Shown piece after piece: positions 456 to 34,651 of a stretch of 64,000 nucleotides of DNA. Source of the stretch: an uncultured Syntrophaceae bacterium. GTDB lineage: Bacteria; Desulfobacterota; Syntrophia; Syntrophales; PHBD01. Location: NCBI GenBank assembly GCA_964578535.1, contig CAZODI010000001.1, positions 108,338 to 172,337 on the forward strand, in the 5' to 3' direction. The stretch's first letter is position 1. Every line of letters starts with the position of its first letter. The translations under genes and the position numbers were made by a program. Below the pieces are notes generated by a model, which searched no databases, was not told the origin of the DNA, and saw only the letters and a program-made list of their open reading frames with translations.

Positions 456-833
456 ATGGCTTCGAAAGCAAAGGGGATCCGCCAGAGCCAGAAGGAGATC
501 TGGCAGAAAAAACTGGATCAGCGATTGGCCGAACTGGCCGCCAGGGGAGTGGAAGGCACCGCTGCGGCAAGGGACGCCGTCGTGCGGTCCCTGAAAGCAA
601 AGGTCCGGGAGGCCGACGGGCGTCTGGCCGCCATTGACGCCAAGGACAAGAAGACCGCCGAAAAGAAGGAGACGAAGGTCCGGAAACTGGCGGAGGCCAA
701 GACTGAGAAGAAGAAGGGGGACGCACCGCCCCCGGTGGAGGAGAAAACCTCCAAGAGCAAGAAGAAGAAAGAGGAAAAGGCGGAGAAGAAAGAAGGCACC
801 GCCAAGGAAAAGAAACCCAAGGCCAAGGAATAA
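456..833 (+). CDS. Lys/Glu-rich small basic protein (hypothetical, histone-H1-like low-complexity tail)
   Basis: 125-aa ORF with GGGAGG 9 nt upstream of the ATG. The C-terminal half is a K/E/A-rich low-complexity tract (KKKKEEKAEKKEGTAKEKKPKAKE). TAATG stop/start overlap with the next gene. Confidence 0.6.
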   Translation: MASKAKGIRQSQKEIWQKKLDQRLAELAARGVEGTAAARDAVVRSLKAKVREADGRLAAIDAKDKKTAEKKETKVRKLAEAKTEKKKGDAPPPVEEKTSKSKKKKEEKAEKKEGTAKEKKPKAKE

Positions 834-1825
834 TGAAGGAAACGTGGACAGCCGGACGCCTCCTGGAGGTGTCCGGCTCCTACTGGCAGACCTGTGCACT
901 CCACACCGGGGTGAAGCTGGGCATCTTCACCGCCCTCGGAAGGAGTTCGCTCCCGGCGGAGGATGTGGCGCAAAAGACGGCGTCCAGCCTGCGCGGAACC
1001 GCTGCACTCCTGAACGCCCTCACCGCCATGGGGCTTCTGGCACGGGACGGCGATCGTTACCGGAACACCGAAGAGTCCTGGACGTATCTTGTGGAGGGGT
1101 CGAAGGAATATATCGGGTACATGATCCTCCACCATCACCACCTGATGGAGTCCTGGGCCAGAATGCCCGCAGCCGTGCGGGGGGGCAGGCCGATCCGGAA
1201 GCGCTCGACGTTCCGGAACCGGGAGGTCCGGGAAAGCTTTCTCATGGGGATGTTCAACCTGGCCAGCCGCCTGGCGCCCAAGATCGTACAGGAAGTCGAT
1301 CTGACAGGACGGAAGCATCTGTTGGACCTGGGCGGAGGGCCGGGAACCTATGCGATTCACTTCTGCCGGCGATATGAGGGGCTCCGGGCTACCGTCTTCG
1401 ATCTCAAGACCACCCGGCCCTTTGCAAGGAAGACCATCCGCCGCTTCGGCATGGAGGACCGTATTGCCTTCCGGGCAGGGAACTACCTGGATGACGACCT
1501 GGGAGAAGGGTACGACGCCGCCTGGCTGTCGCACATCCTGCACGGGGAAGGGCCGGAAGATTGCAGGAAGATCGTCTCCAGGGCGACGGCGGCCCTGGAG
1601 CCGGGAGGTGTTTTGGTCGTCCACGAGTTCATCCTGAACGACACGAAGGACGGGCCCCTGCACCCGGCCCTGTTTTCCCTCAACATGCTCCTGGGGACCC
1701 CCGAGGGGCGCTCCTACTCGGATTCGGAGATCCGGGACATGCTCACCGCCGCGGGCCTCCGGGATGTCTGCCGCCTGCCGTTCCGGGCCCCCAACGACTC
1801 TGGCCTCATCGCCGGCTGGAAATGA
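833..1825 (+). CDS. Class I SAM-dependent O-methyltransferase (family 2, with N-terminal dimerisation/winged-helix region)
   Basis: 330 aa with SAM motif I LLDLGGGPGTY and the downstream acidic VFDL and HILHGEG motifs typical of Methyltransf_2 O-methyltransferases. Confidence 0.8.
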   Translation: MKETWTAGRLLEVSGSYWQTCALHTGVKLGIFTALGRSSLPAEDVAQKTASSLRGTAALLNALTAMGLLARDGDRYRNTEESWTYLVEGSKEYIGYMILHHHHLMESWARMPAAVRGGRPIRKRSTFRNREVRESFLMGMFNLASRLAPKIVQEVDLTGRKHLLDLGGGPGTYAIHFCRRYEGLRATVFDLKTTRPFARKTIRRFGMEDRIAFRAGNYLDDDLGEGYDAAWLSHILHGEGPEDCRKIVSRATAALEPGGVLVVHEFILNDTKDGPLHPALFSLNMLLGTPEGRSYSDSEIRDMLTAAGLRDVCRLPFRAPNDSGLIAGWK

Positions 1826-2155: not shown

Positions 2156-2170
2156 TGGTACGCCTGTTGC
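2156..2170 (+). promoter_or_regulatory. sigma-54 (-24/-12) promoter candidate
   Basis: TGGTACGCCTGTTGC matches TGGCACG-N4-TTGC at 14 of 15 specified/spaced positions with correct GG-to-GC spacing. It lies about 58 nt upstream of ATG 2228 (RBS AGGAGG), and a sigma-54 activator gene lies at the end of the operon. Confidence 0.6.
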
Positions 2171-2227
2171 TCAACGGGAGAGCGCGGCAGTTCATAACCT
2201 CATCAACCCTTTTTCAGGAGGGCAGCC

Positions 2228-3202
2228 ATGGACATCAGCACCGTTTCCGGCGTCGTTTCTTCCGAGAACCTGGGCATGACCCTGATGCACGAACACTTCC
2301 TGTTCGGATTTCCCGGCTGGCAGGGCGACGTCACCATGGGCCCCTTCGACCGGCAGGCCTGCGTGGAGGCCGGCTTGAAGATGGCTGGAAGAGTCATGGA
2401 GCAGGGCGTGAAAACCGTTGTCGACGTCACGCCGAACGAGTGTGGAAGGGATGTGGAGCTGCTCCGGGAAATCTCGGAAAAGAGCGGCCTCAACATTCTC
2501 TGCTCCAGCGGATACTACTTCGAGGGTGAGGGGGCGCCGCCCTATTTCAAGCTGCGGAGCCAGTTCGGGCAGGGTGTGGAGCAGGTGTACGAGATGTTCA
2601 AGACAGAGGTGGAGAAGGGTGTCGGAGCTACCGGCATCCGGCCCGCCGTTTTCAAGGTTGCCTCCGGCAAAGATGCCATCACGGACTACGAGGCGATGTT
2701 CTTCCGGGCGGCCGCCCGGGTCTCGAAGGAGAACGGCATCCCGATCATCACGCATACCCAGGAGGGGAAACTCGGACCCGAGCAGGCCGATCTGCTCATC
2801 GCCGAGGGGGTCGACCCGAAGCGGATCATGATCGGGCATATCGACGGATCGACGGATATGGACTACCTCCTCCGGGTCCTCGAAAAAGGCGTATACATCG
2901 CCTTCGACCGTTTCGGCGTGGAAAATGTCGGCGGAGCGCCGCCGGATTCCCGCAGGGTTGCCTGCCTCATCGGCCTTCTCGGTCTCGGCTGGGCCGATAA
3001 AATCATGATTTCAAACGACTACGTGAATTACTGGCTGGGCCGGCAGGGGGTTTCGGAGATCGTGAGCCTGGTCATGCCGAATTACAACATCACCCACATT
3101 TTCCAGGACATCATCCCGGCGCTGAAGAAGGCCGCTGTCAGCAGCGGGCAGATCGAGACGATGCTGATCGCCAATCCGCGACGGTTCCTTGAGGGAGTCT
3201 GA
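2228..3202 (+). CDS. Phosphotriesterase-family amidohydrolase (phosphotriesterase-like lactonase / PHP type)
   Basis: 324 aa. The binuclear metal ligand set is recognisable: MHEHF (HxH), FKVAS (carboxylated Lys position), ITHTQ, IGHID, ISNDY. Confidence 0.8.
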   Translation: MDISTVSGVVSSENLGMTLMHEHFLFGFPGWQGDVTMGPFDRQACVEAGLKMAGRVMEQGVKTVVDVTPNECGRDVELLREISEKSGLNILCSSGYYFEGEGAPPYFKLRSQFGQGVEQVYEMFKTEVEKGVGATGIRPAVFKVASGKDAITDYEAMFFRAAARVSKENGIPIITHTQEGKLGPEQADLLIAEGVDPKRIMIGHIDGSTDMDYLLRVLEKGVYIAFDRFGVENVGGAPPDSRRVACLIGLLGLGWADKIMISNDYVNYWLGRQGVSEIVSLVMPNYNITHIFQDIIPALKKAAVSSGQIETMLIANPRRFLEGV

Positions 3203-3262
3203 TGGTGCCGCGAACCGTCCGGGACAGAAGGAGAACATCGCCATTTCACACAAGGAGGGACC

Positions 3263-4915
3263 ATGCCCGAATACGTGCCGATCACGTTTGAGAAAAACAA
3301 CCTGCTCGAACACCTGACGCAGGTCATCGGGGACTATCCGGAACGGACAGCCGTCGTCACCGCGGATGGAACGGTCCGGAAGACCTACAGGGAGATCGAC
3401 CGCCGCTCGAACCGGCTGGCGCATTATCTTGCCCGGCTCGGCGTCGGCAAGGGCGACCGTGTCGCCATCTTCCAGAACAACGGCTGGCAGTACCCGGAGC
3501 AGTATCTGGCGATCCTCAAGCTCGGCGCGATCTGCGTTCCCATGAACTTCCGCCTGAAGAGTCCCGAGGCACTGTTCATCCTGACGGAATCGGGGGCCAA
3601 GGCGCTGATCCTGGAAAGCCGGTATGCCGCCGTTTTTGAGCCGACCCTCACCTATCAACTGGGGGTGAAGCACTATCTCTGCACCAACGGAGAGGCCCCC
3701 GAATGGGCGGTCGATTACGAGACGGCGCTGGCCGGGGAGCCGGACGAGGCGGTCGAAGCGCCGGATATGACCCTGGACGACGTTCTGGCCATCTGCTTCA
3801 CCAGCGGTACGACGGGCCTCCCCAAGGGCTCCATGGCGACGCACCGGCAGATCATGACGAACTTCTACGGCGAGATGGGGAATCTCATCGAGAGCACCAT
3901 GCATCCGGACCGGGGATATCATGTCGTCATGATGATCATTCCCGTGTACCACATCGCAGGCATCATGACGCTCTATGCGGGCATGAAATTCGGATCCACC
4001 ATCGTCGTATCGTCGGATTTTGCGCCGGAAGGATTCATGCAGACGGTGGAGCGGGAGCAGGTCTCCCTGTGCTACCTGGTGCCGATCATGTTCTTCTTCA
4101 TCCTCCACGATCCCTCCTTCGGGAAGTATGACCTCGGCAGCCTGCGTTTCGTTCCCTACGGCGCGATGCCGATGGACCCCGCCCTCCTCCAGGACATCCT
4201 GAAGAAATTTCCGCCGGGCATCCGCTACATGGACGCCTTCGGCTCGACGGAGGTGTGCATCAACATCGCCAAGCTTCCCGAGGATCACGATCTGACGGGA
4301 TCTCCCGAAGAAGTTGAAAAGAAGATCGCCCGACTGAAGAGCATCGGCCGTCCTTTCCGTTACGGCATCGAGAGCACGATTCTGGATCCCTTCGGCAAGG
4401 AGGTTCCTCCCGGGGTCGTGGGCGAGATCGCCTCCCGGGGCGAGAAAGTGACCGTCGGATACTGGCGGAATGCGGAAGAGACGGCACGGACGATCGACCG
4501 GAACGGCTGGTTCCACACCGGCGACGCCGGATGGATGGACGAAGACGGCTATGTGTACTTCGCCGACCGGGCCAAGGACATGATCAACCGGGGCGGCGAG
4601 AACATCTTCCCCGCCGAGGTCGAGCGCCGGCTCAATCAGCACCCCAGGGTCCTGGAATCGGCCGTCTTCGGCGTTCCCGATCCGGCCTGGGGAGCCCGCG
4701 TCGTGGCGGCCGTCGTCCTGGCGCCGGGACAGACGGCGGAGACGGTGCCCGCGGAGGAGCTCATCGGCTTCTGCAAGGAGCAGATGGCAAGCTACAAGGC
4801 CCCGTCGGCGATCTGGTACATCGACCAGCTCCCCAGGCGGTTCGAGCTCGGCAAGGTGATGCGGTTCGTGCTGCGAGACGAATACATGAAGAAAAGGGAG
4901 GACATTGTTTCATGA
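3263..4915 (+). CDS. AMP-dependent acyl-CoA synthetase/ligase
   Basis: 550 aa with the AMP-binding signature FTSGTTGLPKG, a later GEI..RG...GYW motif and a C-terminal K in the SYKAP region. Confidence 0.9.
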   Translation: MPEYVPITFEKNNLLEHLTQVIGDYPERTAVVTADGTVRKTYREIDRRSNRLAHYLARLGVGKGDRVAIFQNNGWQYPEQYLAILKLGAICVPMNFRLKSPEALFILTESGAKALILESRYAAVFEPTLTYQLGVKHYLCTNGEAPEWAVDYETALAGEPDEAVEAPDMTLDDVLAICFTSGTTGLPKGSMATHRQIMTNFYGEMGNLIESTMHPDRGYHVVMMIIPVYHIAGIMTLYAGMKFGSTIVVSSDFAPEGFMQTVEREQVSLCYLVPIMFFFILHDPSFGKYDLGSLRFVPYGAMPMDPALLQDILKKFPPGIRYMDAFGSTEVCINIAKLPEDHDLTGSPEEVEKKIARLKSIGRPFRYGIESTILDPFGKEVPPGVVGEIASRGEKVTVGYWRNAEETARTIDRNGWFHTGDAGWMDEDGYVYFADRAKDMINRGGENIFPAEVERRLNQHPRVLESAVFGVPDPAWGARVVAAVVLAPGQTAETVPAEELIGFCKEQMASYKAPSAIWYIDQLPRRFELGKVMRFVLRDEYMKKREDIVS

Positions 4916-5946
4916 GGAATATGCTCGACACCCTGTCTTTCCGGGTATCCCCGGAGGACGAATACAACCATCCCGTTGACGATGCGAAGAACTTCAATGA
5001 AAGCATGTATATCAACCTGTTCGATTTCAACCGGGCCATGGGGGGATGGTTTCGTGTGGGAAACCGTCCGAACGAGGGGAACGCGGAGGTCACCTGCTGC
5101 CTGTATCTTCCCGACGGGAGCGTGGGATTCATCTTCAGCCGTCCGAACATCTCGTCGAACGAGTCTCTCAACGCGGCGGGGCTGAAATTCGAGGTCCGGG
5201 AGCCGCTGAAGCGGATCCGGGTCACTTACAGCGGACCGGTGTGCCTCCTGAAGAACCCGCACGAGATGGCGAAACCGATGAAGGCCTTCGCGGAGAATCC
5301 CATTGTCGATTGCTCGGTGGCCCTGGATTTCCAGGCGGTCGGACCGGTCTTCGGCGGTGAGATGGTCAACAAGGATGGCAGTCCTTTCCAGGAGCCTCCG
5401 GAGGAGGCGTTTGCGAAGGCGCATTACGAGCAGCACATGAGCGGTGCAGGAACCATCCGCGTCCAGGAGCATGAATGGAAAATCGACGGCTTCGGACTGC
5501 GGGACCACTCCTGGGGCCCACGGTACTGGCAGAACATCTACTGGTACCGTTGGCTGCCGATGAATTTCGGCCCCGATCTCGGGTTCATGTTCATGATCAT
5601 GGGCAAGGAAGACGGAAACCACCAGATGATGGGGATCATGCTGGAGAACGGCCGGTACGTTCCCTTCCGGGACGTGGAGCTGCAGACGGAGTGGGACGAA
5701 AACTACTATCAGACCGCCCTCAAGGTGAAGGCCAGGACAGACGACAGCGAGCACGAGATCGAGGGGCGGGTCCTGTCCCTCATCCCGCTTCGCAACCGGA
5801 GAAAGAACGAGGCGGGCGACGTGCTCGAGACGCGCATCACCGAGGGGATGACAGAATACCGGTACCGGGGCAGGGTAGGGTACGGAATGTCGGAATACCT
5901 CGACCAGATCATCCACGGCGAACCGGCGGGAAAGGAGAAGGGATGA
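4912..5946 (+). CDS. Uncharacterised conserved protein (344 aa, DHSWGPRYW motif; possible AttH/CrtC-like beta fold)
   Basis: The ORF-track ORF 4531..5946 was trimmed to ATG 4912, which overlaps the ligase stop (ATGA). The N-terminal 127 codons of the long ORF are Arg/Gly-rich overlap with the ligase gene. I recognise no catalytic family with confidence. Confidence 0.7.
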   Translation: MRNMLDTLSFRVSPEDEYNHPVDDAKNFNESMYINLFDFNRAMGGWFRVGNRPNEGNAEVTCCLYLPDGSVGFIFSRPNISSNESLNAAGLKFEVREPLKRIRVTYSGPVCLLKNPHEMAKPMKAFAENPIVDCSVALDFQAVGPVFGGEMVNKDGSPFQEPPEEAFAKAHYEQHMSGAGTIRVQEHEWKIDGFGLRDHSWGPRYWQNIYWYRWLPMNFGPDLGFMFMIMGKEDGNHQMMGIMLENGRYVPFRDVELQTEWDENYYQTALKVKARTDDSEHEIEGRVLSLIPLRNRRKNEAGDVLETRITEGMTEYRYRGRVGYGMSEYLDQIIHGEPAGKEKG

Positions 5947-5947
5947 T

Positions 5948-6940
5948 ATGAAGCAGGAAGAACTCGCCGGCTGTCTCACCCGCGCCGCTTCGCGGCATCT
6001 CGGGAAACCGGTGGTGATCGAAGACCTCCGGCCTCTCTCCGGCGGCGCTTCCGCGGAGACGTGGCATTTCGACGCCCTCTGCGGCGCTGAGCGCCACGAG
6101 TTGATCCTCAGGCTGTCGCCCCCGGGAGGGAAGAAGGACAAGAACCGCCTCGACCGGGGAACGGAGGCGCTAGTGCTGGCAAACGTGCAGAAGGCGGGCG
6201 TTCCCGTTCCTCCCGTCCATTTCGTTCTCGATGACGAGGACGGGATCGGTCCCGGGTATGCCATGCAGCGCATACCGGGGGAGACCATCGCGCGGAAGAT
6301 CCTGCGCGACGACGAATACGCGGAGGCGCGGGACGTCATGGCCCGGCAGTGCGGAAGGATCCTTGCCGGCATCCACACCGTCGATCCCGGCCTTCTGCCG
6401 CCCCTGAAGAAGCAGCCGGCGGAGGCCGGGCTGAAGCAGCTGTACACGTTTTACGACGCCTTCGGCGACAGGCACCCCGTTTTCGAGTACGCCCTGCGCT
6501 GGCTTCAGGACCACATCCCGAAGCAGGGGGATTTGCGTCTGGTACACGGCGATTTCCGGAACGGAAATTTCATTGTCGGCCCCGAGGGTGTCCGGGCCGT
6601 CCTCGACTGGGAGCTTGCCCATCTCGGCGATCCCATGGAGGACCTTGGCTGGATATGCGTCAATTCCTGGCGCTTCGGCAACATCGACCACCCCGTCGGC
6701 GGCTTTGGAAGCCGGGAGGACCTGTTCGCCGGGTACGAGGGAGCGGGAGGCGTTCCCGTCGATCCCGCCGCGGTCCATTTCTGGGAGGTGTTCGGAACGC
6801 TGAAGTGGGGAATCATCTGCATCGTCCAGGCCTTCACCCATCTGATGGGAATGAAGCGCTCCGTTGAGCTGGCCGCCATCGGCCGGCGGACCTCGGAAAC
6901 GGAGATCGATCTGCTGCGTCTGCTGAGAGAGGGAAAGTGA
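5948..6940 (+). CDS. APH/choline-kinase-family phosphotransferase (LvaA / ACAD10-11 kinase-domain-like)
   Basis: 330 aa with catalytic loop LVHGDFRNGNF and DWELAHLGDP motifs. The ATG lies 1 nt after the upstream stop. Confidence 0.85.
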   Translation: MKQEELAGCLTRAASRHLGKPVVIEDLRPLSGGASAETWHFDALCGAERHELILRLSPPGGKKDKNRLDRGTEALVLANVQKAGVPVPPVHFVLDDEDGIGPGYAMQRIPGETIARKILRDDEYAEARDVMARQCGRILAGIHTVDPGLLPPLKKQPAEAGLKQLYTFYDAFGDRHPVFEYALRWLQDHIPKQGDLRLVHGDFRNGNFIVGPEGVRAVLDWELAHLGDPMEDLGWICVNSWRFGNIDHPVGGFGSREDLFAGYEGAGGVPVDPAAVHFWEVFGTLKWGIICIVQAFTHLMGMKRSVELAAIGRRTSETEIDLLRLLREGK

Positions 6941-6941
6941 C

Positions 6942-7334
6942 ATGGCTCCATCACGACCGACTGTTTTAGAGCTGCTGGAGGCCGTTCAGGAATTTCTGGA
7001 AAAGAGAATCGTGAAGTCCGTCGATTCGCACCGGGCCTTTCACACGCGGGTCGCCATCAACGCCCTGGCGCTGGTGCGGAGGGAACTCCAGCTGGGTCCG
7101 GGATTCGCAAGCGAGGAACAGGGGCGGCTCCGCTCGCTGCTCGGCATCGAAGGCGGAATTGCGGAACTGAACGACGAATTGTGCCGCCGCCTGCGGAACG
7201 TCGAGCTGGACTGCCGCGAAGGGGATCTTTTCCGACACCTGTTCGAGACGACGATGGCGCAGCTGGCTATTGATAATCCCGAGTACTCCGGGTACCGGAA
7301 AGCCTTGGAGGAATCGACGGGCACGGAAGGCTGA
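6942..7334 (+). CDS. Small helical protein, DUF6285-like partner of APH-type kinases
   Basis: 130 aa starting 1 nt after the kinase stop. The pattern PTVLELLEAVQEFLEKRIV...RVAINALALVRREL matches my recollection of proteins that follow such kinases in actinobacterial clusters. Confidence 0.6.
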   Translation: MAPSRPTVLELLEAVQEFLEKRIVKSVDSHRAFHTRVAINALALVRRELQLGPGFASEEQGRLRSLLGIEGGIAELNDELCRRLRNVELDCREGDLFRHLFETTMAQLAIDNPEYSGYRKALEESTGTEG

Positions 7335-7356
7335 AAAACGGAGTCCCTTTCCCCCG

Positions 7357-9000
7357 TTACGCATTCGCCCTGGAAATGCCGTACCGTGCCATCTTCCGGT
7401 ACAGCGTCGAGCGGGCCATGCCCAGCGAACGGGAAGCGCGGGAGAGGTTCCACTTGCACATCCCGAGGGCGGCCCGGATGCGGCGCCGCTCCCTGGAGTC
7501 GAGCGATTCCGTGTGGCAGCCGCCGGCGATATCCTCCTTGAGGTCCCCGGCTTCGATCACCCGCCCTTCCGAGAAGATGCAGGCCGTCTCGATCGCGTTT
7601 TCCAGTTCCCGCACGTTGCCGGGCCAGGAATAGTCAAGCAGCGCATCCATGGCCCGGCTCGACATCTCCTTCGCTTCCCCTCCGTGTCTGTCGCTCATTT
7701 TCCGGAGGAAATGGCTCACCAGCCGGGGGATGTCCTCCCGGCGCTCCCGCAGGGGCGGGATGTGAAAGGATATCACGTTGAGGCGATGGTACAGGTCGCC
7801 CCGGAACCGTTTTTGTTCCACCATCTCCTTCAAGTCCCGGTTCGTCGAGGCGACGACCTGGACATCGACCCGCTGAGGCCTGCCGCCGCCGAGAGGGATC
7901 ACCGTCTTGTCCTCGATGACCCGCAGCAGATAGGCCTGAAGGTTCATGCTCATTTCGCTGATCTCGTCGAGATAGATGGTTCCGCCCGCCGCCTGTTCGA
8001 AACGGCCCGGGCTTCCCCCCCGCCTGGCTCCCGTGAAGGCCCCCGCTTCATAGCCGAAGAGTTCGCTCGCCGTCAGATCGGGTGGGATGGCCGCACAGTT
8101 GACGGCCACGAAGGGGTGTCGCCGTCGCGGGCTGTTCTCGTGAATGAAGCTTGCCAGAACCTCCTTGCCCACGCCGCTTTCCCCCGTGATCAGCTTGGTC
8201 GAATCGTATTGCGCGGCCTTCCGGGCCTTCCCGAGGAGCCGGCCGATGCCGGCGGAGCCGAATATGAACTCGCAATGCGTCCGGACCCATGCGGACGGGT
8301 CTTCCCCTCCGGGAAAACGGACACCCGCGGCGGTCCTTGCGCCCGCCCGGGGTATGGACGGAAGGGAAGGCCTTGGCGTCCAGTTCGTTCGAACGGCCGG
8401 CTCCGGGGCGTATCTCAGTCTTTCTTCGATCATGCCGGCGATGGACTGCACGATGCCCAGTGCAAATATGTGAAAATGCTTGATGAAACAGGTAAGGCAC
8501 ACGGCTCCGGCGATTTCCCCCGTGAAGGGGTCCCGGATCACCGTTGCCGCATTGGCCGAGTCCTGCCACTGCTTGACGAAATTCTCCTCTCCGATGACAC
8601 AAATGGGTTCACCGGTGGCAAGAGAGGTTCCGATCGCGTTGGTTCCGATGTATTCCTCGCTGCAGCTTGTTCCGATATTGAAGCCGCAGCGCATCCCGCT
8701 CTCGGACCACCGGTCGTTTCCCGTGCCGGCGACGATGACGGCCTTCTCGTCGGCGATGGCCACCACGAAGCGCGACAGTTCGAGCATGGGGTGGAATTTT
8801 TCCAGGATGGGCGTTGCCGCGTCGACAAGTCTCCTCACCTGCTGGGACCGGTCGTTGATGTATTCTTTGCTGAATGTGACGGGAGCTTGCTTGATGTCCT
8901 GATTGATGCCGACGGCGATGCTCCTCTCCAGGGAACAATCAATCTGCCGACGAAACATGCGCCTCAGGTACGGCATGGTGTCCCGAACTGTCACGGACAT
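7357..9000 (-). CDS. sigma-54-dependent transcriptional activator, AcoR-type GAF sensor + AAA+ + Fis-type HTH
   Basis: Motifs seen: Walker A GESGVGKE, the GAFTGA loop (YEAGAFTGA), GTNAIGTSL in the sensor domain, and a C-terminal HTH (RSTLYRKMARYGI). Start set at ATG 9000 (MSVTV...), preceded by AGGGGGA; the longer ORF to 9177 has no RBS. Confidence 0.85.
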   Translation of the reverse strand: MSVTVRDTMPYLRRMFRRQIDCSLERSIAVGINQDIKQAPVTFSKEYINDRSQQVRRLVDAATPILEKFHPMLELSRFVVAIADEKAVIVAGTGNDRWSESGMRCGFNIGTSCSEEYIGTNAIGTSLATGEPICVIGEENFVKQWQDSANAATVIRDPFTGEIAGAVCLTCFIKHFHIFALGIVQSIAGMIEERLRYAPEPAVRTNWTPRPSLPSIPRAGARTAAGVRFPGGEDPSAWVRTHCEFIFGSAGIGRLLGKARKAAQYDSTKLITGESGVGKEVLASFIHENSPRRRHPFVAVNCAAIPPDLTASELFGYEAGAFTGARRGGSPGRFEQAAGGTIYLDEISEMSMNLQAYLLRVIEDKTVIPLGGGRPQRVDVQVVASTNRDLKEMVEQKRFRGDLYHRLNVISFHIPPLRERREDIPRLVSHFLRKMSDRHGGEAKEMSSRAMDALLDYSWPGNVRELENAIETACIFSEGRVIEAGDLKEDIAGGCHTESLDSRERRRIRAALGMCKWNLSRASRSLGMARSTLYRKMARYGISRANA

Positions 9001-9130
9001 AGGATGTTCCCCCTTTGGTCTCTGCGATTCGCGTCCCGGATATGGCAGGGGATGCCGCTCCATGCCGGCGCCGCTCTCATGGTTTTGCTTCCGTCGGCTG
9101 GAAGACTGTAAATGCCCTGGAAGTGAAAAG

Positions 9131-9697
9131 TCAAGGAGCTGCCGAACCGGCAATCTGAGGATCTCCGAGCACGACAAGGGCGTCCACCGCGACGGGGAGA
9201 TCGCCTTGAATGATCAGGGGATTGATGTCGATTTCGGCGATCTCCGTGATCTCCAGCCCGATCCTGCTCAGGTTCCGGAGAATCTCCGCCAGCCGGTCCC
9301 GGTTGACAGCCGGCTCCCCCCGGAACGGTTCCAGGAGCCTCCAGGCCCTGATCTCGGCGATCATTTCCAGGGCATCTTCGAGATCGAGGGGCGCGGTCCG
9401 GAATGCGACGTCCCCGAGCGCCTCCGTGAAGATCCCGCCGAGGCCGAACATGACGCACGGCCCGAGCTGCGGGTCCCGGATCAGGCCGGCGACGAACTCC
9501 CTCTTCCCCCGGATCATCTGCTGAACGAGAATGCCGTCGATCCGGCCTTTCCCGCGCTCCTCCATGGAGGCATAGGTCTCATCCAGAGCCTTTTCATCGC
9601 GGATGTCGAACGCGACCATGGTCACGATCGACTCGCTGGCCGCGCCGCTCTGGCCCAGGATCCCAATCGTCCCGGGGAGGCGGTGTCTTTCGCGGGG
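9131..9697 (-). pseudogene. Remnant of an ADP-forming acyl/acetyl-CoA synthetase family gene (internally deleted, N-terminally truncated)
   Basis: The 164-aa ORF matches only the C-terminal part of the ATP-grasp domain. The 25 codons upstream in the same frame read PGTIGILGQSGAASESIV, which resembles the SucD-type CoA-ligase motif PGxIGIVSxSGTL and normally lies hundreds of residues away. That frame runs directly into the stop codon of the caspase gene. Confidence 0.5.
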
Positions 9698-12600
9698 TTA
9701 CTGCCGCCGCACGACGTAGACGGATATGTCCTTGCCGAAATGGTTGATCACCGGCGTCTGCGTGTGGCCGGACTCTTTCGAATATCTTGCCGTACGCTCC
9801 CTGGCGTAGGCTCCCAGTTCGCGGATGCTCACCCGGCTGTCCCCGTCCGCATCGGCTGCCCGATTGTTGTCCAGTCCCTCCAGAAGGCTGTACGTGAAGA
9901 CCCCGTTCCTGCCCCGGTAGCCGTCCAGCGCCGCCTGCGTGGAGCTTGCCGATGCGAACATGTGCAGGCCCATGTTCCTCGCCATGACGGTCATTCGTGC
10001 ATCGTAAAGCCCGCTCACAAAGCGGTCGAGGCCGCCCGCGTGACAGGTGTCGAGAATGTAGATCTGCGTCAGTGACTTGATGTTCTTTGAAATTTCCATG
10101 ATCTCGTTTGAGCTGAGGAGGCTGCCACTGTCGAGCGTGCCGTTGTAGTCGTGGGTGACGATGGAGTAGAGGCCCGATTGAATGACCCCGTGGCTGGCCA
10201 TGAAGAGCACGAATACGTCGCCGGGTTTTACGGTCCGGGACAGCTCATGGATCCTGTCCTGAATGTTCCTCTTGGTCGCGTCGCCGTTGATCAGCGAGCT
10301 GATATGGATGTTTTCGCGACGGTATTGTGTCCGCGACTGCTCCTGAATTCTCCTGGCGAAGCTCTCCGCGTCCTTGACGGCGAACCGGAGATTGCTTTCC
10401 CGGGATTTGAATTCGTCGATCCCGACGGCCAGGATGTACATGCGGGGATCATCCGCCTTGAGGGTGGATCGGAACGTGGCCGTCTTCAGGATGCTCTGCA
10501 CGGAATTGCTCCTGTTGAAGGCCGCGAGGCTGACGTCGTTTTCTCCCGGGATGGCGTCCACGGTGATCGATCCTTCGTACACGTCGCCTTTCGGCACGGT
10601 TCTCATGAGGCCCAACCCGCTTTCCTGCCTGGCGACGAGGTTGATGCTGCGCAGGTCCTCCCGGATGGCCCGCGCGTTGTAGGAAAGAAGGGTCGCATTG
10701 CCTGCCGGTGCCGCCTTTGCCTGCCGGTAAAAACCGTCGGACTGGATGAGCTTGCCGTTGTGGAACAGGCGGACCTCGCCGATTCCGCCGCCGGCAGCCG
10801 TGATTCTGTAGCCGATGGTGACTTTTGTCTCCGCGGTTTCCTTCGGAACGCTCTGGAACGCAACCTGAGGCGGAGGATTTCGGAGGGCTTCCTCGATGTT
10901 CGTCGCATCCAGCGCGGCGGTGTCCTCACCCTTCAGTTTCGCCTCCACGATGTCAGGCCTGTAGAAGACATCGTAGAATTGCTCGAGGCCGAACACCCGG
11001 TTGCCCTGCCTGACATTGAGGAACGCGGGGCCATACCTGGACCCCTTGAAGGGACCCTCCGGAGTGATGACAACCCAGTCGTCGTCCATCAGACTGATGA
11101 ATTGGGCGATCTCCCTGCCGTTGGAAACGTCCCAGAGGCGGATCGTGCTGTCCCCGCCGCTGCCGTGATAGGAAATGGGCCGTATTCCAACGCCGCTCGC
11201 GGAAAGAACGTGCCGTCCGTCCGGATGGAAGGCCACGGAATTGACATTGCCCGTATGCCCCCGGAACGTCCTGATCTCGGAGCCGGTCACCGCATCCCAG
11301 AGCTTCAGGGTGGTGTCCTCGCTTCCCGATAGCACCTGCCGTCCGTCCGGGCTGAACGCCACGGACGTGACCCAGTCCGTGTGACCCCGGAATGTCCGGA
11401 TCTCCTTGCCGCTTTTGGCGTCCCAGAGCCTCAGGGTCCTGTCCAGGCCTCCCCCTCCGGACAGGATCTGCCGGCCGTCGGGGCTGAACGCCACGGCATG
11501 CACGAAATCCGAATGTCCTTTCATGATGACCGGCTCCCCGCCGGAGGCCAGATCCCGGAGCTTCAGAACGTAGTCCTCTCCCGCCGACACGGCGAACCGG
11601 CCGTCCGGGCTGAAGGCCTGAACGGCCATAGAGCCGGTTTTAACCTTGAAGGTTCGAATTTCCCGGCCGCTTTGCACGTCCCAGAGCCGCTGGGTGTCGT
11701 CCAGGCCCGTCGAAAGGGCCCGCTGCTTCCCGTCCGGGCTGAATAAAACGGAATTGATGCCCTTGGAGTGCCCCTTGAAGACCCGGATCTCACGGCCCGT
11801 CTTCACGTCCCAGAGCCGGATGGTCGTGTCTTCGCTTCCCGACAGGGCGAGCCTTCCGTCGGGGCTGAACGTCGTGGCGGTAACGGGGCCGGAATGTCCC
11901 GTGAACTTCCTGATCTCGACACCGCCGGCCAGATCCCAGAGCTTCAGGGTACGATCCGGGCCTCCCGACAGTGCAAGGCTTCCGTCCGGGCTGAAGGCCG
12001 TGCATGCCGCCTCTCGTGCAAATCCGATGAACACCTGCAATCGCCTGCCGTCGGCCGCGTCCCAGAGCAGCACGGCAAAATCGGCGCCGCCCGACAGGAT
12101 CTGCCGGCCGTCGGGGCTGAAGACGGCGGAGTGGACCCGGAAGGAATGCCCCTTGAACGTTCTCAACACGTTTCCGTCGGCATCCCAGAGCTTCAGGGTG
12201 TTGTCGAAGCTGCCGGACAGGAGTTGCCGGCCGTCCGGGCTGAACGCAACCGTCTGCACCCAGTCCGAGTGACCCCTGAACACCCGGATCTGCCGGCCGC
12301 TGGATGCATCCCAGAGCCTCATCGTTTTGTCGATGCTCCCCGAGAGGATGTACCGTCCGTCCGGGCTGAACGCCGCGGACCTCACCTCGTCGGAATGCCC
12401 CGTGAAGACCTTCATCTCACGGCCGCTGTAAGCATCCCGGAGCGTCAGGGTGTTGCTGAGACCGATGGACAGAACGGATCGGTGATCCGGACTGAGGGCG
12501 ACGACATCGCGCGAGTATCCCTGGATTTTCCCGATCTCCGCGCCGGTGGCGATGTCCCAGCGTGTCAGCGTGCCGTTCACGCTTCCCGCCAGGGCGTGCC

Positions 12601-13021
12601 TGCCGTCGGGGCTGAAGGCGGCGAAGGTGATCCAGTCGGCGCGGAACGTCCTGAGGGGCGCGCCGCTTGCCATGTCCCAGAGCCTCAGGGTATTGTCCCT
12701 GCTTCCCGACAGGGCGTACTTTCCGTCGGGGCTGAAGGCCACGGACGTGACCCAGTTCCGGTGTCCCCTGAAGGTCCTGATCTCCATGCCGCTGGACACT
12801 TCCCAGAGCTTCAGGACGTAATCTTCGCCCCCCGAGAGGGCATACCGGCCGTCCGGGCTGAAGGCCACGGCGTTCACTTTTCCCGAGTGCCCCATCTGTA
12901 CGAAAATGTCCGGCCTTTCATCGGCGGAGACGGCCTCCTCCGGCATCGCCCATGCCAGCACGGCGGCAAGCAGCAGGAGGATCAAGGGTCCGGTTCCCGT
13001 CCTGAAATCCGCAGATTTCAT
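9698..13021 (-). CDS. Secreted WD40-repeat (14 blades) protein with C-terminal peptidase C14 (caspase/orthocaspase) domain
   Basis: Start set at ATG 13021 (MKSADFRTGTGPLILLLLAAVLAWA, a signal peptide; AGGAAG RBS). There are 14 repeats of the form AFSPDGRxxLSGSxDxTLxLWD. The C-terminal domain has the His (FMASHGV) and Cys (ILDTCHAGG) dyad motifs. Confidence 0.85.
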   Translation of the reverse strand: MKSADFRTGTGPLILLLLAAVLAWAMPEEAVSADERPDIFVQMGHSGKVNAVAFSPDGRYALSGGEDYVLKLWEVSSGMEIRTFRGHRNWVTSVAFSPDGKYALSGSRDNTLRLWDMASGAPLRTFRADWITFAAFSPDGRHALAGSVNGTLTRWDIATGAEIGKIQGYSRDVVALSPDHRSVLSIGLSNTLTLRDAYSGREMKVFTGHSDEVRSAAFSPDGRYILSGSIDKTMRLWDASSGRQIRVFRGHSDWVQTVAFSPDGRQLLSGSFDNTLKLWDADGNVLRTFKGHSFRVHSAVFSPDGRQILSGGADFAVLLWDAADGRRLQVFIGFAREAACTAFSPDGSLALSGGPDRTLKLWDLAGGVEIRKFTGHSGPVTATTFSPDGRLALSGSEDTTIRLWDVKTGREIRVFKGHSKGINSVLFSPDGKQRALSTGLDDTQRLWDVQSGREIRTFKVKTGSMAVQAFSPDGRFAVSAGEDYVLKLRDLASGGEPVIMKGHSDFVHAVAFSPDGRQILSGGGGLDRTLRLWDAKSGKEIRTFRGHTDWVTSVAFSPDGRQVLSGSEDTTLKLWDAVTGSEIRTFRGHTGNVNSVAFHPDGRHVLSASGVGIRPISYHGSGGDSTIRLWDVSNGREIAQFISLMDDDWVVITPEGPFKGSRYGPAFLNVRQGNRVFGLEQFYDVFYRPDIVEAKLKGEDTAALDATNIEEALRNPPPQVAFQSVPKETAETKVTIGYRITAAGGGIGEVRLFHNGKLIQSDGFYRQAKAAPAGNATLLSYNARAIREDLRSINLVARQESGLGLMRTVPKGDVYEGSITVDAIPGENDVSLAAFNRSNSVQSILKTATFRSTLKADDPRMYILAVGIDEFKSRESNLRFAVKDAESFARRIQEQSRTQYRRENIHISSLINGDATKRNIQDRIHELSRTVKPGDVFVLFMASHGVIQSGLYSIVTHDYNGTLDSGSLLSSNEIMEISKNIKSLTQIYILDTCHAGGLDRFVSGLYDARMTVMARNMGLHMFASASSTQAALDGYRGRNGVFTYSLLEGLDNNRAADADGDSRVSIRELGAYARERTARYSKESGHTQTPVINHFGKDISVYVVRRQ

Positions 13022-13064
13022 ATGTCCGCTTCCTTTCCAGATACCGGCCGGGCCGGCGAAGGTT

Positions 13065-13496
13065 CTACAGCAGCAGGATGATATCGACAATGATCATCCC
13101 GATCAGCGCGATTCCGGCCAGAAAATTCAGGACTTCACTCATCCACCCCAGGCGCTGGACCCAGAGCCCGCCGAAGATGCCCAGGATATAACCCGCCAGC
13201 GCCCCGGCCAGCCCGCACAGCAGCCGTACCCCGTAAGCCGTCTTGTATGCGTGTCCGGTTCCCAGCCCCGCCGTGAATCCGAGAAAAACCAGAAAGAAAA
13301 AGATGCCCACGCGGAAGTCGTCAAAGGACGGCTTGATCCCCGCGTGAGAACGGATTCCGTGGACAACCAGAAACAGGACACCGCCCGTTCCCGCCAGGGC
13401 GAAGATCCAGCCGAGGATGGAACCCTTTCCCAGTGCCTCGGCGTACCCGGTGACGGAGGCCACGAGCGAGACTGCCAGGAGGATCGACAGTTCCAT
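13065..13496 (-). CDS. Small integral membrane protein (about 4 TM), hypothetical
   Basis: Trimmed to MELSILLAVSLVASV... The sequence is hydrophobic and Gly-rich with helix-like segments. It is co-oriented with and 43 nt upstream of the WD40-caspase gene. Confidence 0.5.
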   Translation of the reverse strand: MELSILLAVSLVASVTGYAEALGKGSILGWIFALAGTGGVLFLVVHGIRSHAGIKPSFDDFRVGIFFFLVFLGFTAGLGTGHAYKTAYGVRLLCGLAGALAGYILGIFGGLWVQRLGWMSEVLNFLAGIALIGMIIVDIILLL

Positions 13497-20603: not shown

Positions 20604-20793
20604 AATGCGTATGATTATATAGATGGCACATGGGATGCTGTCAAGGACCGACTGCCATTCGATATCTCTCAATGGGTGGAGGGGTGTCCCTTGCCATTTT
20701 TCTTGACCGCTCCTCTGTTCATCCGTTATAGGGGGCTCCTGTTTCGGGATCTGGAAGAGTCAACATTATGAAAAAATATCGGGAGGTTGTATT

Positions 20794-33283: not shown

Positions 33284-34651
33284 ATGGCGAAGATCCTGAT
33301 CGTGGATGACGACCAGGGCGTGCGGGAGCTGCTCGAGATCATGCTCACCCGGGAGGGGTATGTGGTGACCTGCGCCTCCGATGCCGACAAGGCGCTGAGC
33401 CGCTGCCGCAAGACGGCGTACGACCTTGTCATCACCGATCTGAAAATGCCCAAGATCGACGGCATCGAGTTCATCCGCCGCCTCAAGGACGTCGCCCCCG
33501 CCACCATGGTCATCCTCATTACCGCGTATGCGTCCCCGGAGACCGCTCTCCTGGCCATGAAGGAGGGGGCGTATGATTACGTCGAAAAGGGGTTCGACTT
33601 CGAGGATCTCAAGACGATCATCCGCAACGCCCTCGACAAGAAGGGTGTGCGGACCGAGGACGCCCGCTTTCTCCAGCAACTCGAGGACGTCGTTTCCTTC
33701 GGCGAGATGATCGGGAAAAGCCGGGAGATGCTCAAGATCTACGGGACCATCAAGAAGGTCGGCGAGACCTCCGCCAACATCCTGATTTTGGGGGAGAGCG
33801 GGACGGGCAAGGAGCTGGTGGCGAAAGCGATTCACGAGCACAGTCCCCGCAGGAAGCTACCCTTCGTGGTGATCAACTGCGGCGGCATTCCCGAGAACCT
33901 GCTGGAGTCGGAGCTGTTCGGGCACATGAAGGGCACCTTCACGGGCGCCCTGACGGACAAGCCGGGGCTCTTCGAGATCGCCCGCGGGGGGACCGTCTTT
34001 CTGGACGAGATCGCCGAGCTGTCCCCCTTTCTCCAGGTCAAGCTGCTCAGGGTCGTTCAGGAAAAGACCTTCCGGCGCATCGGGGGAGCCGAGGAGATCC
34101 GGGTGGACGTCCGGATCATTTCCGCAACCAACCAGGACCTGGCAAAGAAGGTTGGGGAGGGGACCTTCCGGGAAGACCTCTTTTACCGGCTCAATGTGAT
34201 TCCCATTCACCTGCCGCCGCTCCGGGAACGGAAGGAAGACATCCCGGCGCTGACCCAGTTCTTCATCGAGAAGTACTCCAGGGCCTTCGGGAAGCAAGTG
34301 CAGCGGATCTCCACGTATGCCATGGAGCTCTTGATGGGCTACCCCTTTCCGGGGAACGTCCGCGAGCTGGAGAACATCATCGAGCGCAGCATCGCCCTGG
34401 AGACGTCGAACATCATCCTCCCGGAAAACCTGGTGCTGTCCGGGAGCGCCTCCGCACAGACTCCTCCGGTCATCGACATCGATATCCCCCCGGAGGGAAT
34501 TCTGCTGAATGATGAGCTGGCGGAGGTCGAGCGCCGGATCATCCGGAAGGCGCTCCTCCAGACAGAGGGATCCAAGACGAAAGCCGCCGAGCTTCTGCAC
34601 GTGAGTTTCGATTCCCTGCGGTACCGCATGGAAAAACTGGGAATCGCCTGA
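33284..34651 (+). CDS. sigma-54-dependent response regulator (NtrC family: REC + AAA+ + HTH)
   Basis: REC residues (DDDQGV...ITDLKMP), Walker A GESGTGKE, GAFTGA-type loop (KGTFTGA) and a C-terminal HTH. Confidence 0.9.
   Translation: MAKILIVDDDQGVRELLEIMLTREGYVVTCASDADKALSRCRKTAYDLVITDLKMPKIDGIEFIRRLKDVAPATMVILITAYASPETALLAMKEGAYDYVEKGFDFEDLKTIIRNALDKKGVRTEDARFLQQLEDVVSFGEMIGKSREMLKIYGTIKKVGETSANILILGESGTGKELVAKAIHEHSPRRKLPFVVINCGGIPENLLESELFGHMKGTFTGALTDKPGLFEIARGGTVFLDEIAELSPFLQVKLLRVVQEKTFRRIGGAEEIRVDVRIISATNQDLAKKVGEGTFREDLFYRLNVIPIHLPPLRERKEDIPALTQFFIEKYSRAFGKQVQRISTYAMELLMGYPFPGNVRELENIIERSIALETSNIILPENLVLSGSASAQTPPVIDIDIPPEGILLNDELAEVERRIIRKALLQTEGSKTKAAELLHVSFDSLRYRMEKLGIA

Follow-up and report, generated by a model that had tools for sequence, protein, structure and literature searches.

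Unactivated hydroxyl groups at a gamma, delta or tertiary carbon block ordinary beta-oxidation, and two solutions are known. The first is a flavoenzyme route, in which a kinase phosphorylates the hydroxyl and an acyl-CoA dehydrogenase (ACAD)-type enzyme eliminates the phosphate; it operates in bacteria with LvaAB/LvaC and in mammals with ACAD10/11. The second is a kinase–lyase pair for steroid side chains in the denitrifier Sterolibacterium denitrificans, in which the kinase 25-HSK makes a phosphoester and a separate cofactor-free C–O lyase, 25-phosphosteroid lyase (25-PSL), eliminates phosphate to give an alkene. Here we analyse a window of 64,000 nucleotides from an uncultured Syntrophaceae bacterium (contig CAZODI010000001.1; all positions are those of the window), which contains a five-gene operon for a lactonase, an acyl-CoA ligase, a protein with the domains DUF7065 and DUF7064, an APH-family kinase and a DUF6285 protein. 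The gene content suggests that the operon recombines the two solutions, using a kinase of the acyl-CoA type and a lyase of the 25-PSL type. On balance, we favour a sigma-54-induced pathway that leads from lactone to hydroxy acid, hydroxyacyl-CoA, phospho-acyl-CoA and enoyl-CoA, in which a cofactor-free lyase similar to 25-PSL, in place of an ACAD, would perform the last step.

The five genes are co-directional and span positions 2228 to 7334 on the forward strand, according to the list of open reading frames (ORFs) and the reading of their junctions. The first gene (2228–3202) encodes a PTE-family protein of 324 aa, a predicted phosphotriesterase-like lactonase (PLL; Pfam PTE, 7e-58). It is followed after 60 nt by the gene for an AMP-forming acyl-CoA ligase of 550 aa (3263–4915; Pfam AMP-binding, 6e-79, and AMP-binding_C). 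The ligase gene overlaps the third gene (4912–5946) in an ATGA, seen in TTTCATGAGG; this gene encodes a 344-aa protein with DUF7065 (1e-15) and DUF7064 (6e-30), a predicted cofactor-free phosphate-eliminating lyase. Gaps of 1 nt each separate it from the gene for an APH-family small-molecule kinase of 330 aa (5948–6940; Pfam APH, 2e-36), and the latter from the gene for a DUF6285 protein of 130 aa, a putative small helical kinase partner (6942–7334; Pfam DUF6285, 4e-29). A convergent gene on the reverse strand (7357–9000), encoding a sigma-54-dependent activator with a sensor domain, AAA+ and HTH_8, stops at 7357, 22 nt beyond the DUF6285 gene. An earlier note on this DNA, made from the letters alone, had described the five-gene operon, the gap sizes, the ATGA overlap and the convergent activator at 22 nt exactly as found here. 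Its family calls (PTE, AMP-binding, APH, DUF6285 and sigma-54 activator) are confirmed by Pfam profile searches, and the protein that it had listed as unknown is the one identified by profile search as DUF7065 and DUF7064. The first gene is preceded by an AGGAGG ribosome-binding site (2216–2221). Three further Syntrophales loci (L007, L086/L087 and L088) carry the identical five-gene set with identical junctions; the AGGAGG is kept in L007 and L086, and L088 has a degenerate GGAGGG there. The closest database protein in a search of 90%-identity clusters is 97% identical and comes from a Syntrophaceae metagenome-assembled genome.

The lva pathway of Pseudomonas putida (LvaR, LvaE, LvaD, LvaA/LvaB and LvaC) and the window both include an acyl-CoA ligase, a kinase of the APH family and a regulator of the sigma-54 type; the small partner of the lva kinase (LvaB, ~12 kDa) may have its counterpart in DUF6285. 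The pathway logic proposed here, a phospho-hydroxyacyl-CoA followed by phosphate elimination to enoyl-CoA, is also that of lva. The ligase is likened to LvaE by its Pfam family, and DUF6285 is likened tentatively to LvaB by its size and its position after the kinase. However, lva starts with the reduction of a keto acid, whereas in the window a lactonase would supply the hydroxy acid, and neither the LvaC-type ACAD nor the LvaD reductase has a counterpart in the 64 kb. Elimination in the window is instead assigned to a non-flavin protein of the AttH fold, and the sensor of the window activator is of the GAF/MimR_N type. The mammalian kinase–ACAD fusions ACAD10 and ACAD11 have the same kinase superfamily, catalytic motif and phosphorylate-then-eliminate logic as the window, but their elimination domain is a flavin-dependent ACAD, whereas that of the window is the beta-barrel DUF7065/DUF7064. 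In S. denitrificans, as in the window, a phosphotransferase-family kinase and a lyase are two separate enzymes acting in succession, and 25-PSL is the closest structural and profile relative of the 344-aa protein. The steroid enzymes act on free steroids with a tertiary C25 alcohol, whereas the operon adds a lactonase, a CoA ligase and DUF6285. The 2021 study that identified 25-HSK, before the lyase gene was known, reported no candidate lyase gene near the kinase gene; in the window, by contrast, the lyase and kinase genes are translationally coupled. Therefore, the operon represents a new combination and not a new principle, because 25-HSK/25-PSL set a precedent for kinase plus lyase, and Lva and ACAD10/11 already follow the same pathway logic.

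The 344-aa protein, a member of a large and highly conserved family, provides the main result. Among NCBIfam models, it matches the 'Rv3169 family' at E 7e-11, which is under the cut-off, and a single-sequence search against PDB sequences gives nothing meaningful. It has 5,388 matches among 90%-identity clusters; among 50%-identity representatives, a limit of E<=1e-3 gives 2,300 matches and a limit of E<=1e-10 gives 1,174. The named relatives listed are all annotated as hypothetical protein. The literature searched contains no mention of DUF6285, DUF7064 or DUF7065, and its mentions of Rv3169 are incidental. The link to 25-PSL is revealed only by the family profile and the fold search. The AlphaFold2 (AF2) model of the protein is nearly all-beta (pLDDT 93, pTM 0.91) and has the two-lobed beta-barrel fold of AttH/CrtC-type hydratases. 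In a Foldseek search of the PDB, the five best matches of this model are all 25-PSL (9fzn, 9g4c and 9g2i among them), with E 1e-14, TM 0.62–0.65 and probability 1.00. These structures include the apo form, the complex with phosphate, and the complex with phosphate and product. AttH 2ich (E 4e-9), kievitone hydratase 7a0t (E 9e-9) and fungal Diels-Alderases rank below them.

In accordance, the DUF7064 family profile finds 25-PSL by sequence with E 1.3e-7, through three collinear motifs. A central motif, G-x-R-D-x-S-W-G-x-R, is common to the 344-aa protein and 25-PSL, as is GYGxxE; GSRDRSWGVR of 25-PSL (RNRSWG in 9g4c) aligns with LRDHSWGPR of the 344-aa protein. In an alignment of 27 DUF7065/DUF7064 family members, which contains many invariant charged residues, R197, D198, S200, W201, G202 and R204 of this motif are invariant. 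Further arginines (R48, R52, R77, R213, R294, R297 and R308) are also invariant in the family, and R48 and R52 at least have no aligned arginine in the portion of 25-PSL that was compared. Two deposited 25-PSL sequences differ by an Asp-to-Asn exchange within RDRSWG. It is the Asn form that was crystallised with phosphate and product, which suggests that the Asp is functionally critical; the motif Asp, which aligns with the invariant Asp198, is thus likely to be catalytically important. Arg197 and Arg204 are present in 25-PSL and missing in AttH 2ich, which has the motif Asp and Trp only. The 344-aa protein does not belong to AttH/CrtC by sequence: the profile reaches AttH 2ich with E 0.19, and there is no Pfam CrtC/AttH match.

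The neighbourhoods of DUF7064 genes connect this family to kinases. A scan with one genome per species gave 589 DUF7064 relatives, and the best 80 of the 589 (52–81% identity) were analysed, with their neighbours written as labelled gene-order strings. A kinase orthologue lies within 5 kb in 31 of these 80 loci, and DUF6285 is found in 26, directly after the kinase gene. With few exceptions, the genes are ordered DUF7064>APH>DUF6285 and separated by next to no DNA, and the carriers are Syntrophales, Parvibaculaceae, Pseudomonadales, Porticoccaceae and Actinomycetota. The genes that flank the trio belong to acyl-CoA metabolism: crotonase (straight after DUF6285 in several Parvibaculum loci), ligase with SDR, aldo-keto reductase with SDR, thiolase, and CoA-transferase. 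The earlier note had asked whether the gene order is conserved in related genomes. The order of lyase, kinase and partner does recur, the full five-gene set does so in the three Syntrophales loci above, and 50 of the 80 loci have no adjoining kinase.

Distant paralogous APH/DUF7064 pairs (27–42% identity), which follow the same logic of orientation, occur in locus L045 (42% and 32% identity for kinase and DUF7064), in Mycobacterium branderi and in Novosphingobium. The M. branderi genes are ordered TetR | APH > DUF7064-like > ligase > ACAD > ACAD. Rv3168/Rv3169 of Mycobacterium tuberculosis is a comparable pair with this APH>DUF7064-like order, opposite to that in the window; it belongs to a distant subfamily (~29% identity in M. 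branderi) and has no DUF6285. The likeness is suggested by the sub-cut-off 'Rv3169 family' match of the 344-aa protein and by a match of the kinase profile to 3ats, which we take to be Rv3168, an APH-like kinase encoded beside Rv3169. We know of no function for this mycobacterial pair.

The search of 50%-identity representatives also revealed single polypeptides of 725–784 aa with an N-terminal APH domain and a C-terminal DUF7065/DUF7064 region (P0186, P0189, P0192 and P0270; L089 8001–10217 and L090 5999–8239). These fusions keep HGDYKFDN, RDHSWG and GYGMSEY and have no ACAD domain. Their domain order is that of ACAD10/11, with the kinase first and the elimination enzyme second. The fusion proteins look like products of microbial eukaryotes. 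Two of the contigs have eukaryotic-looking neighbours (a PI3/PI4 kinase with a PH domain, a 7TM-RGS protein, a NOX-like ferric reductase with SH3, and LRR proteins), and the L089 fusion gene is flanked by genes for a 4HBT thioesterase and a PhyH dioxygenase. From the recurrent pairs and the fusions, we are highly confident that DUF7064 is functionally coupled to a kinase.

The catalytic loop of the window kinase, H200-G-D202-F-R-N-G-N207, fits HxDx4N. A profile built from 28 kinase orthologues and ranked against the PDB matches 3dxp best (5.5e-27), followed by 9o56 (8e-22), the ACAD11 kinase domain (8e-20), 3ats (1e-15) and 9fsg (2.5e-12), with antibiotic kinases far behind. Therefore, the window kinase is nearer to ACAD11-type kinases than to 9fsg, which we only guess to be 25-HSK. 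It differs from ACAD11, 3dxp and the fusion proteins, in which the loop reads HGD(F/Y)(K/R)xDN, by its HGDFRNGN loop and by the separate DUF6285 protein. In the cultured bacteria examined, DUF6285 always follows a kinase with an HGDFRxGN loop, as it does in Thermus, Sulfitobacter pontiacus and Variovorax; identity of the window kinase is 41% with its Thermus relative and 52% with the one from S. pontiacus. LvaB, a possible counterpart of DUF6285, is described as a hypothetical protein of 12 kDa; it binds LvaA, and both are required. The AF2 model of the DUF6285 protein is all-helical (pLDDT 74, pTM 0.46). It has no match below E 2 among PDB folds in Foldseek, profile and single-sequence searches of PDB sequences give chance matches only, and a word-index-based homologue search returned 18 close relatives only.

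The PTE protein matches the lactonases GsP (3f4c), GkL (3ojg/4h9u) and Dr0930 (3fdk) over its full length with E ~1e-106, but true parathion hydrolases with E ~1e-46 only. PLLs have a (beta/alpha)8 amidohydrolase fold, in which four His, one Asp and a carboxylated Lys bind the metals (PMC3468530). All six metal ligands (HxH, Lys, His, His and Asp) are conserved in the window protein: where GsP 3f4c has its ligands, the aligned segments are HEH, VFKVAS, THTQEG, IGHIDG and SNDYV. The natural activity of GkL, GsP and Dr0930 is that of lactonases, with a preference for gamma- and delta-lactones that bear medium alkyl chains; their phosphotriesterase activity is limited to traces (PMC3468530). The likeness to these characterised gamma/delta-lactonases strengthens the lactonase reading of the earlier note, and the first gene probably encodes a PLL-type lactonase. 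The relatives have been studied alone, for quorum quenching and promiscuous organophosphate hydrolysis, whereas the window lactonase opens what appears to be a CoA-dependent catabolic operon. The ligase scores 442 bits against the NCBIfam fatty-acid-CoA ligase model PRK06187, just under the cut-off, and its best PDB matches are fatty-acyl- and feruloyl-CoA synthetases (1e-72). By homology, it is a generic relative of fatty-acyl-CoA synthetases.

Upstream of the operon, a sigma-54 (-24/-12) promoter, TGGTACGCCTGTTGCT, is positioned at 2156–2171 on the forward strand. It reads TGGTAC-N5-TTGCT, with one mismatch to TGGCAC-N5-TTGCW, and lies on the correct strand, 57 nt 5' of the ATG at 2228. Such a match is not significant by itself and we rejected it as sole evidence, because the bare pattern is expected 1.02 times per 64 kb on both strands. 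However, the core TGGxAxxxxTGTTGC is invariant across the window, L007, L086 and L088, with -24 GG, -12 GC and spacing unchanged, and the intergenic DNA of these four orthologous loci is otherwise poorly conserved. We therefore accept the promoter by position and conservation and not by the pattern alone, in agreement with the near-consensus site proposed in the earlier note. An imperfect palindrome, AATGGGACAGAGTGTCTCA, is found at 2028–2046, with its centre ~119 nt upstream of the -24 GG. This element (AATGGGACAnAGTGTCTCA, ~120 nt upstream of the promoter) is conserved in the three loci that reach that far (window, L007 and L086), where its consensus AATG(G/A)GACAnAGTGT(C/T)TC stands amid divergent intergenic DNA, and it is a candidate site for binding of the activator.

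The domains of the convergent activator are likewise verified (Sigma54_activat 8e-63, AAA_lid_14, HTH_8 and a weak GAF in Pfam). Convergent orthologues of 547 and 530 aa in L086/L087 and L088 contain MimR_N/GAF, Sigma54_activat and HTH_8; no convergent activator is present in L007, which has the same five genes. The ORF of the window activator extends to 9177 (606 aa), but the protein probably starts at Met60, giving 547 aa encoded by 7357–9000, because GGGGGA precedes Met60 and the resulting length equals that of the L086 orthologue. The activator probably controls the operon promoter. Elsewhere in the window, a second near-consensus -24/-12 match, TGGCACATGGGATGCT, lies at 20624–20639 on the forward strand, and a second sigma-54 activator gene (33284–34651, forward strand) encodes a paralogue that is 40% identical to the operon activator over the AAA+ core.

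The operon would serve the catabolism of gamma/delta-lactones or of the matching hydroxy acids. In the pathway that we favour, an effector would be sensed through the GAF/MimR_N-type domain of the activator, which would bind the palindrome ~120 nt upstream and open the -24/-12 promoter. The binuclear-metal lactonase would convert the lactone into a 4- or 5-hydroxy acid, and the ligase would convert the hydroxy acid into hydroxyacyl-CoA. The APH kinase, helped by the small helical DUF6285 protein, would phosphorylate the unactivated hydroxyl with ATP, and the DUF7065/DUF7064 protein would then eliminate the phosphate within its two-lobed beta-barrel of the AttH/CrtC fold to give enoyl-CoA. Asp198 of RDxSWGxR is the likely acid/base, and Arg197 and Arg204 are the likely phosphate-holding residues. 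The enoyl-CoA would enter beta-oxidation through enzymes encoded elsewhere. Kinase and lyase would thus jointly form an ATP-dependent dehydratase, in the role of LvaC or of the ACAD domain of ACAD10/11. These steps are drawn from homology and comparative genomics, and this applies in particular to the phosphate-lyase chemistry, the CoA-bound substrate and the origin from a lactone, all of which we infer.

Consistent with elimination without a flavoenzyme, tblastn reveals no ACAD in the window with a generic and an ACAD10/11-type query, and no SDR, crotonase or thiolase homologue either, so that the absence of ACAD and SDR from the operon, claimed earlier, extends to the whole 64 kb. Other genomes carry the same kinase module together with an ACAD. 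On plasmid pTT27 of Thermus thermophilus HB8 (L091, record positions 5044–9889), genes for a ligase, an SDR, an ACAD, APH, DUF6285 and a histidine phosphatase are clustered, and the ACAD scores 249 bits to an ACAD10/11-type reference versus 134 to a generic one. Sulfitobacter pontiacus has a ligase, APH, DUF6285, a generic ACAD, two crotonases and a thiolase; in Variovorax paradoxus, a kinase-DUF6285-ACAD unit stands beside a ligase-SDR-DUF7064-crotonase unit. Kinases with the HGDFRxGN loop and DUF6285 thus adjoin an ACAD or DUF7064 depending on the genome. Therefore, one kinase–helper module appears to pair either with an LvaC/ACAD10/11-type flavoenzyme or with DUF7064. The suggestion of the earlier note that the 344-aa protein is a non-flavin phosphate-elimination enzyme accordingly gains computational support from four independent sides: the fold and profile of 25-PSL, the synteny with kinases, the kinase fusions, and the DUF6285-associated kinases that elsewhere accompany an ACAD10/11-like ACAD. 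The Lva-like cluster of Thermus pTT27 belongs to a cultured thermophile and would suit experiments on the kinase–DUF6285 pair.

Several findings weigh against this proposal. The 344-aa protein is only ~16% identical to 25-PSL, and the same fold also houses hydratases and pericyclases. Carbocation-like chemistry is usual for this fold, and 25-PSL acts on a phosphoester at a tertiary carbon, from which phosphate departs readily; cofactor-free elimination would be harder for a secondary 4- or 5-phosphoester that has no acidic hydrogen next to it. The majority of the closest DUF7064 orthologues (the 50 of 80 mentioned above) have no adjoining kinase. Locus L021 carries DUF7064-APH-DUF6285-ligase-SDR, but the arrangement in its relative L023 is DUF7064-ligase-SDR; other kinase-less arrangements are DUF7064-P450 and, in SAR86, DUF7064 with a luciferase-like monooxygenase, and L001/L008 have a DUF2889-DUF7064-PTE operon behind another sigma-54-like promoter. 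In addition, DUF7064 and a flavoenzyme coexist in some genomes. A plasmid of Sulfitobacter alexandrii (L095, 2646–8014) carries in one operon a TRAP transporter, APH, a 157-aa protein, a ligase, an ACAD10/11-type ACAD (E 2.6e-126 to ACAD11) and DUF7064, in which the 157-aa protein has no Pfam match and is not DUF6285. In locus L004 (7329–11038), genes for a histidine phosphatase, an LvaC-type ACAD, TetR and DUF7064 adjoin one another. DUF7064 thus does not replace the flavoenzyme in every case, because S. alexandrii has both in one operon. The idea that the cluster excludes an ACAD accordingly holds for the window and for 77 of the 80 sampled loci, where an ACAD is within 5 kb in only three, and fails in S. 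alexandrii. Where both coexist, DUF7064 and the flavoenzyme might take different isomers or positions.

The alternative that survives best, although we consider it unlikely, makes the 344-aa protein a hydratase or isomerase that needs no cofactor, similar to CrtC, kievitone hydratase or AttH. It would work directly on an alcohol or a C=C bond without a phosphoester, and the kinase would serve another step, or another substrate of the same pathway. Such an activity would agree with the fold, for which Foldseek gives E 4e-9 to 1e-7 to AttH 2ich and kievitone hydratase 7a0t, with the orthologues that lack an adjoining kinase, and with clusters in which the only partner of DUF7064 is PTE, P450, a luciferase-like monooxygenase or crotonase. 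However, structure and sequence profile both rank 25-PSL first, and the arginines of RDxSWGxR are present in 25-PSL but not in AttH. Moreover, the APH-DUF7064 fusions and the tight pairs, which recur in at least four divergent subfamilies, indicate that the two enzymes catalyse successive steps, and a hydratase would have no obvious role here because the lactonase already supplies the hydroxyl.

It is less probable still that the kinase and the lyase act on the free hydroxy acid or on another non-CoA alcohol, and that the ligase activates the resulting alkenoic acid later. The only characterised relative of the lyase, 25-PSL, does use a non-CoA substrate, the gene order (ligase before lyase and kinase) leaves the reaction order unfixed, and the DUF2889-DUF7064-PTE clusters lack a ligase. 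However, 3dxp and the ACAD11 kinase domain are the nearest solved relatives of the kinase, and the kinase domains of ACAD10/11, like LvaA, phosphorylate 4-hydroxyacyl-CoA and require the CoA moiety. The same kinase subtype also occurs in CoA-dependent clusters of the beta-oxidation type, with ligase, ACAD, crotonase and thiolase, and the extra invariant arginines of the DUF7064 family could bind the phosphates of CoA.

We assign a similarly low probability to phosphate elimination by an LvaC/ACAD10/11-type flavoenzyme encoded elsewhere in the genome, with DUF7064 as an accessory that handles the opposite enantiomer, the alternative regio-isomer, a by-product or a subsequent step. The single operon of S. 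alexandrii with kinase, ligase, ACAD10/11-type ACAD and DUF7064 would fit such a division of labour, as would the adjoining genes in L004, and the genome was inspected over 64 kb. However, an ACAD is absent from the window, none of the 80 DUF7064 loci sampled has an ACAD10/11- (LvaC-) type ACAD within 10 kb, and both the kinase-DUF7064 fusions without an ACAD domain and the homology to a true phosphate lyase favour a direct role. We rejected as barely credible a detoxification or resistance island composed of an organophosphate hydrolase and an aminoglycoside or macrolide phosphotransferase, which the family names PTE and APH and weak NCBIfam APH(3') and Mph matches might evoke, because those matches reach 27 bits versus a cut-off of 205, the close PLL relatives have trace phosphotriesterase activity only, and resistance would not explain the ligase, the sigma-54 control or the acyl-CoA neighbourhoods.

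If the 344-aa protein is a phosphate lyase as we favour, the consequences may extend beyond this operon. Tentatively, and with rather less assurance than for the operon itself, we propose that DUF7065/DUF7064 proteins are cofactor-free phosphoester lyases. Together with APH-type kinases, and often with a DUF6285 helper, they would act as a general dehydratase, driven by ATP, on the unactivated hydroxyls of acyl-CoA or lipid substrates, an unrecognised flavin-independent parallel to LvaC and ACAD10/11. DUF7065/DUF7064 proteins (~2,300 clusters at 50% identity) are spread over Desulfobacterota, Alpha- and Gammaproteobacteria including SAR86, Actinomycetota including the M. tuberculosis Rv3169 group, and microbial eukaryotes. 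The loci analysed suggest that the kinase–lyase module is widespread, in marine SAR86 relatives, Parvibaculum, Pseudomonadales, Actinomycetota and Syntrophales, and in fused form in apparent microbial eukaryotes. The breadth of the proposal is considerable, because three DUF families (DUF7064, DUF7065 and DUF6285) and thousands of genes would gain a function. It would also provide a testable hypothesis for the Rv3168/Rv3169 pair of M. tuberculosis, explain the use of lactones and hydroxy fatty acids by strict anaerobes, and offer biotechnology a cofactor-free enzyme for the conversion of hydroxy acids into alkenoic acids.

Some related clusters have other compositions. In L001 (7611–12065; also in L002, L003 and L008), a sigma-54-type promoter match is followed by a 77-aa ORF, an M24 peptidase/creatinase-like gene, DUF2889, DUF7064 and a PTE lactonase, without kinase or ligase. 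The DUF2889 gene overlaps that of DUF7064 by 22 nt; the DUF7064 protein of this cluster type is 63% identical to that of the window, and the PTE protein of L008 is 52% identical to its window counterpart. In L005/L011 (7471–11035), DUF7064 is divergent from an APH kinase gene that overlaps a class-III aminotransferase gene. Kinase and phospho-lyase pairs are known for hydroxylysine and ethanolamine phosphate, and this APH-aminotransferase pair resembles them. Further downstream on the S. alexandrii plasmid lies a gene annotated as SMP-30/gluconolactonase, whose product consists of a transporter permease domain and strictosidine-synthase/SGL-like domains. A histidine-phosphatase gene recurs beside ACAD10/11-type ACADs and APH kinases, in L004, in Thermus and in the lva cluster of P. 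citronellolis (PMC6692424).

On the 5' side of the operon, a Lys/Glu-rich 125-aa ORF without a Pfam match (456–833, forward strand) directly precedes the gene for an O-methyltransferase (833–1825, forward strand; Methyltransf_2 and dimerisation domain); both appear to be outside the operon. Just upstream of the activator gene, a 164-aa ORF (9131–9625, reverse strand) corresponds to the C-terminal two thirds of ATP-grasp_5 (profile positions 67–221, E 1e-44) and appears to be a truncated remnant of a gene of the ADP-forming acyl-CoA synthetase type. It is followed in the window by a reverse-strand gene (9698–13090) for a protein of 1130 aa, which has many WD40-like repeats and a C-terminal region that looks caspase-like by eye.

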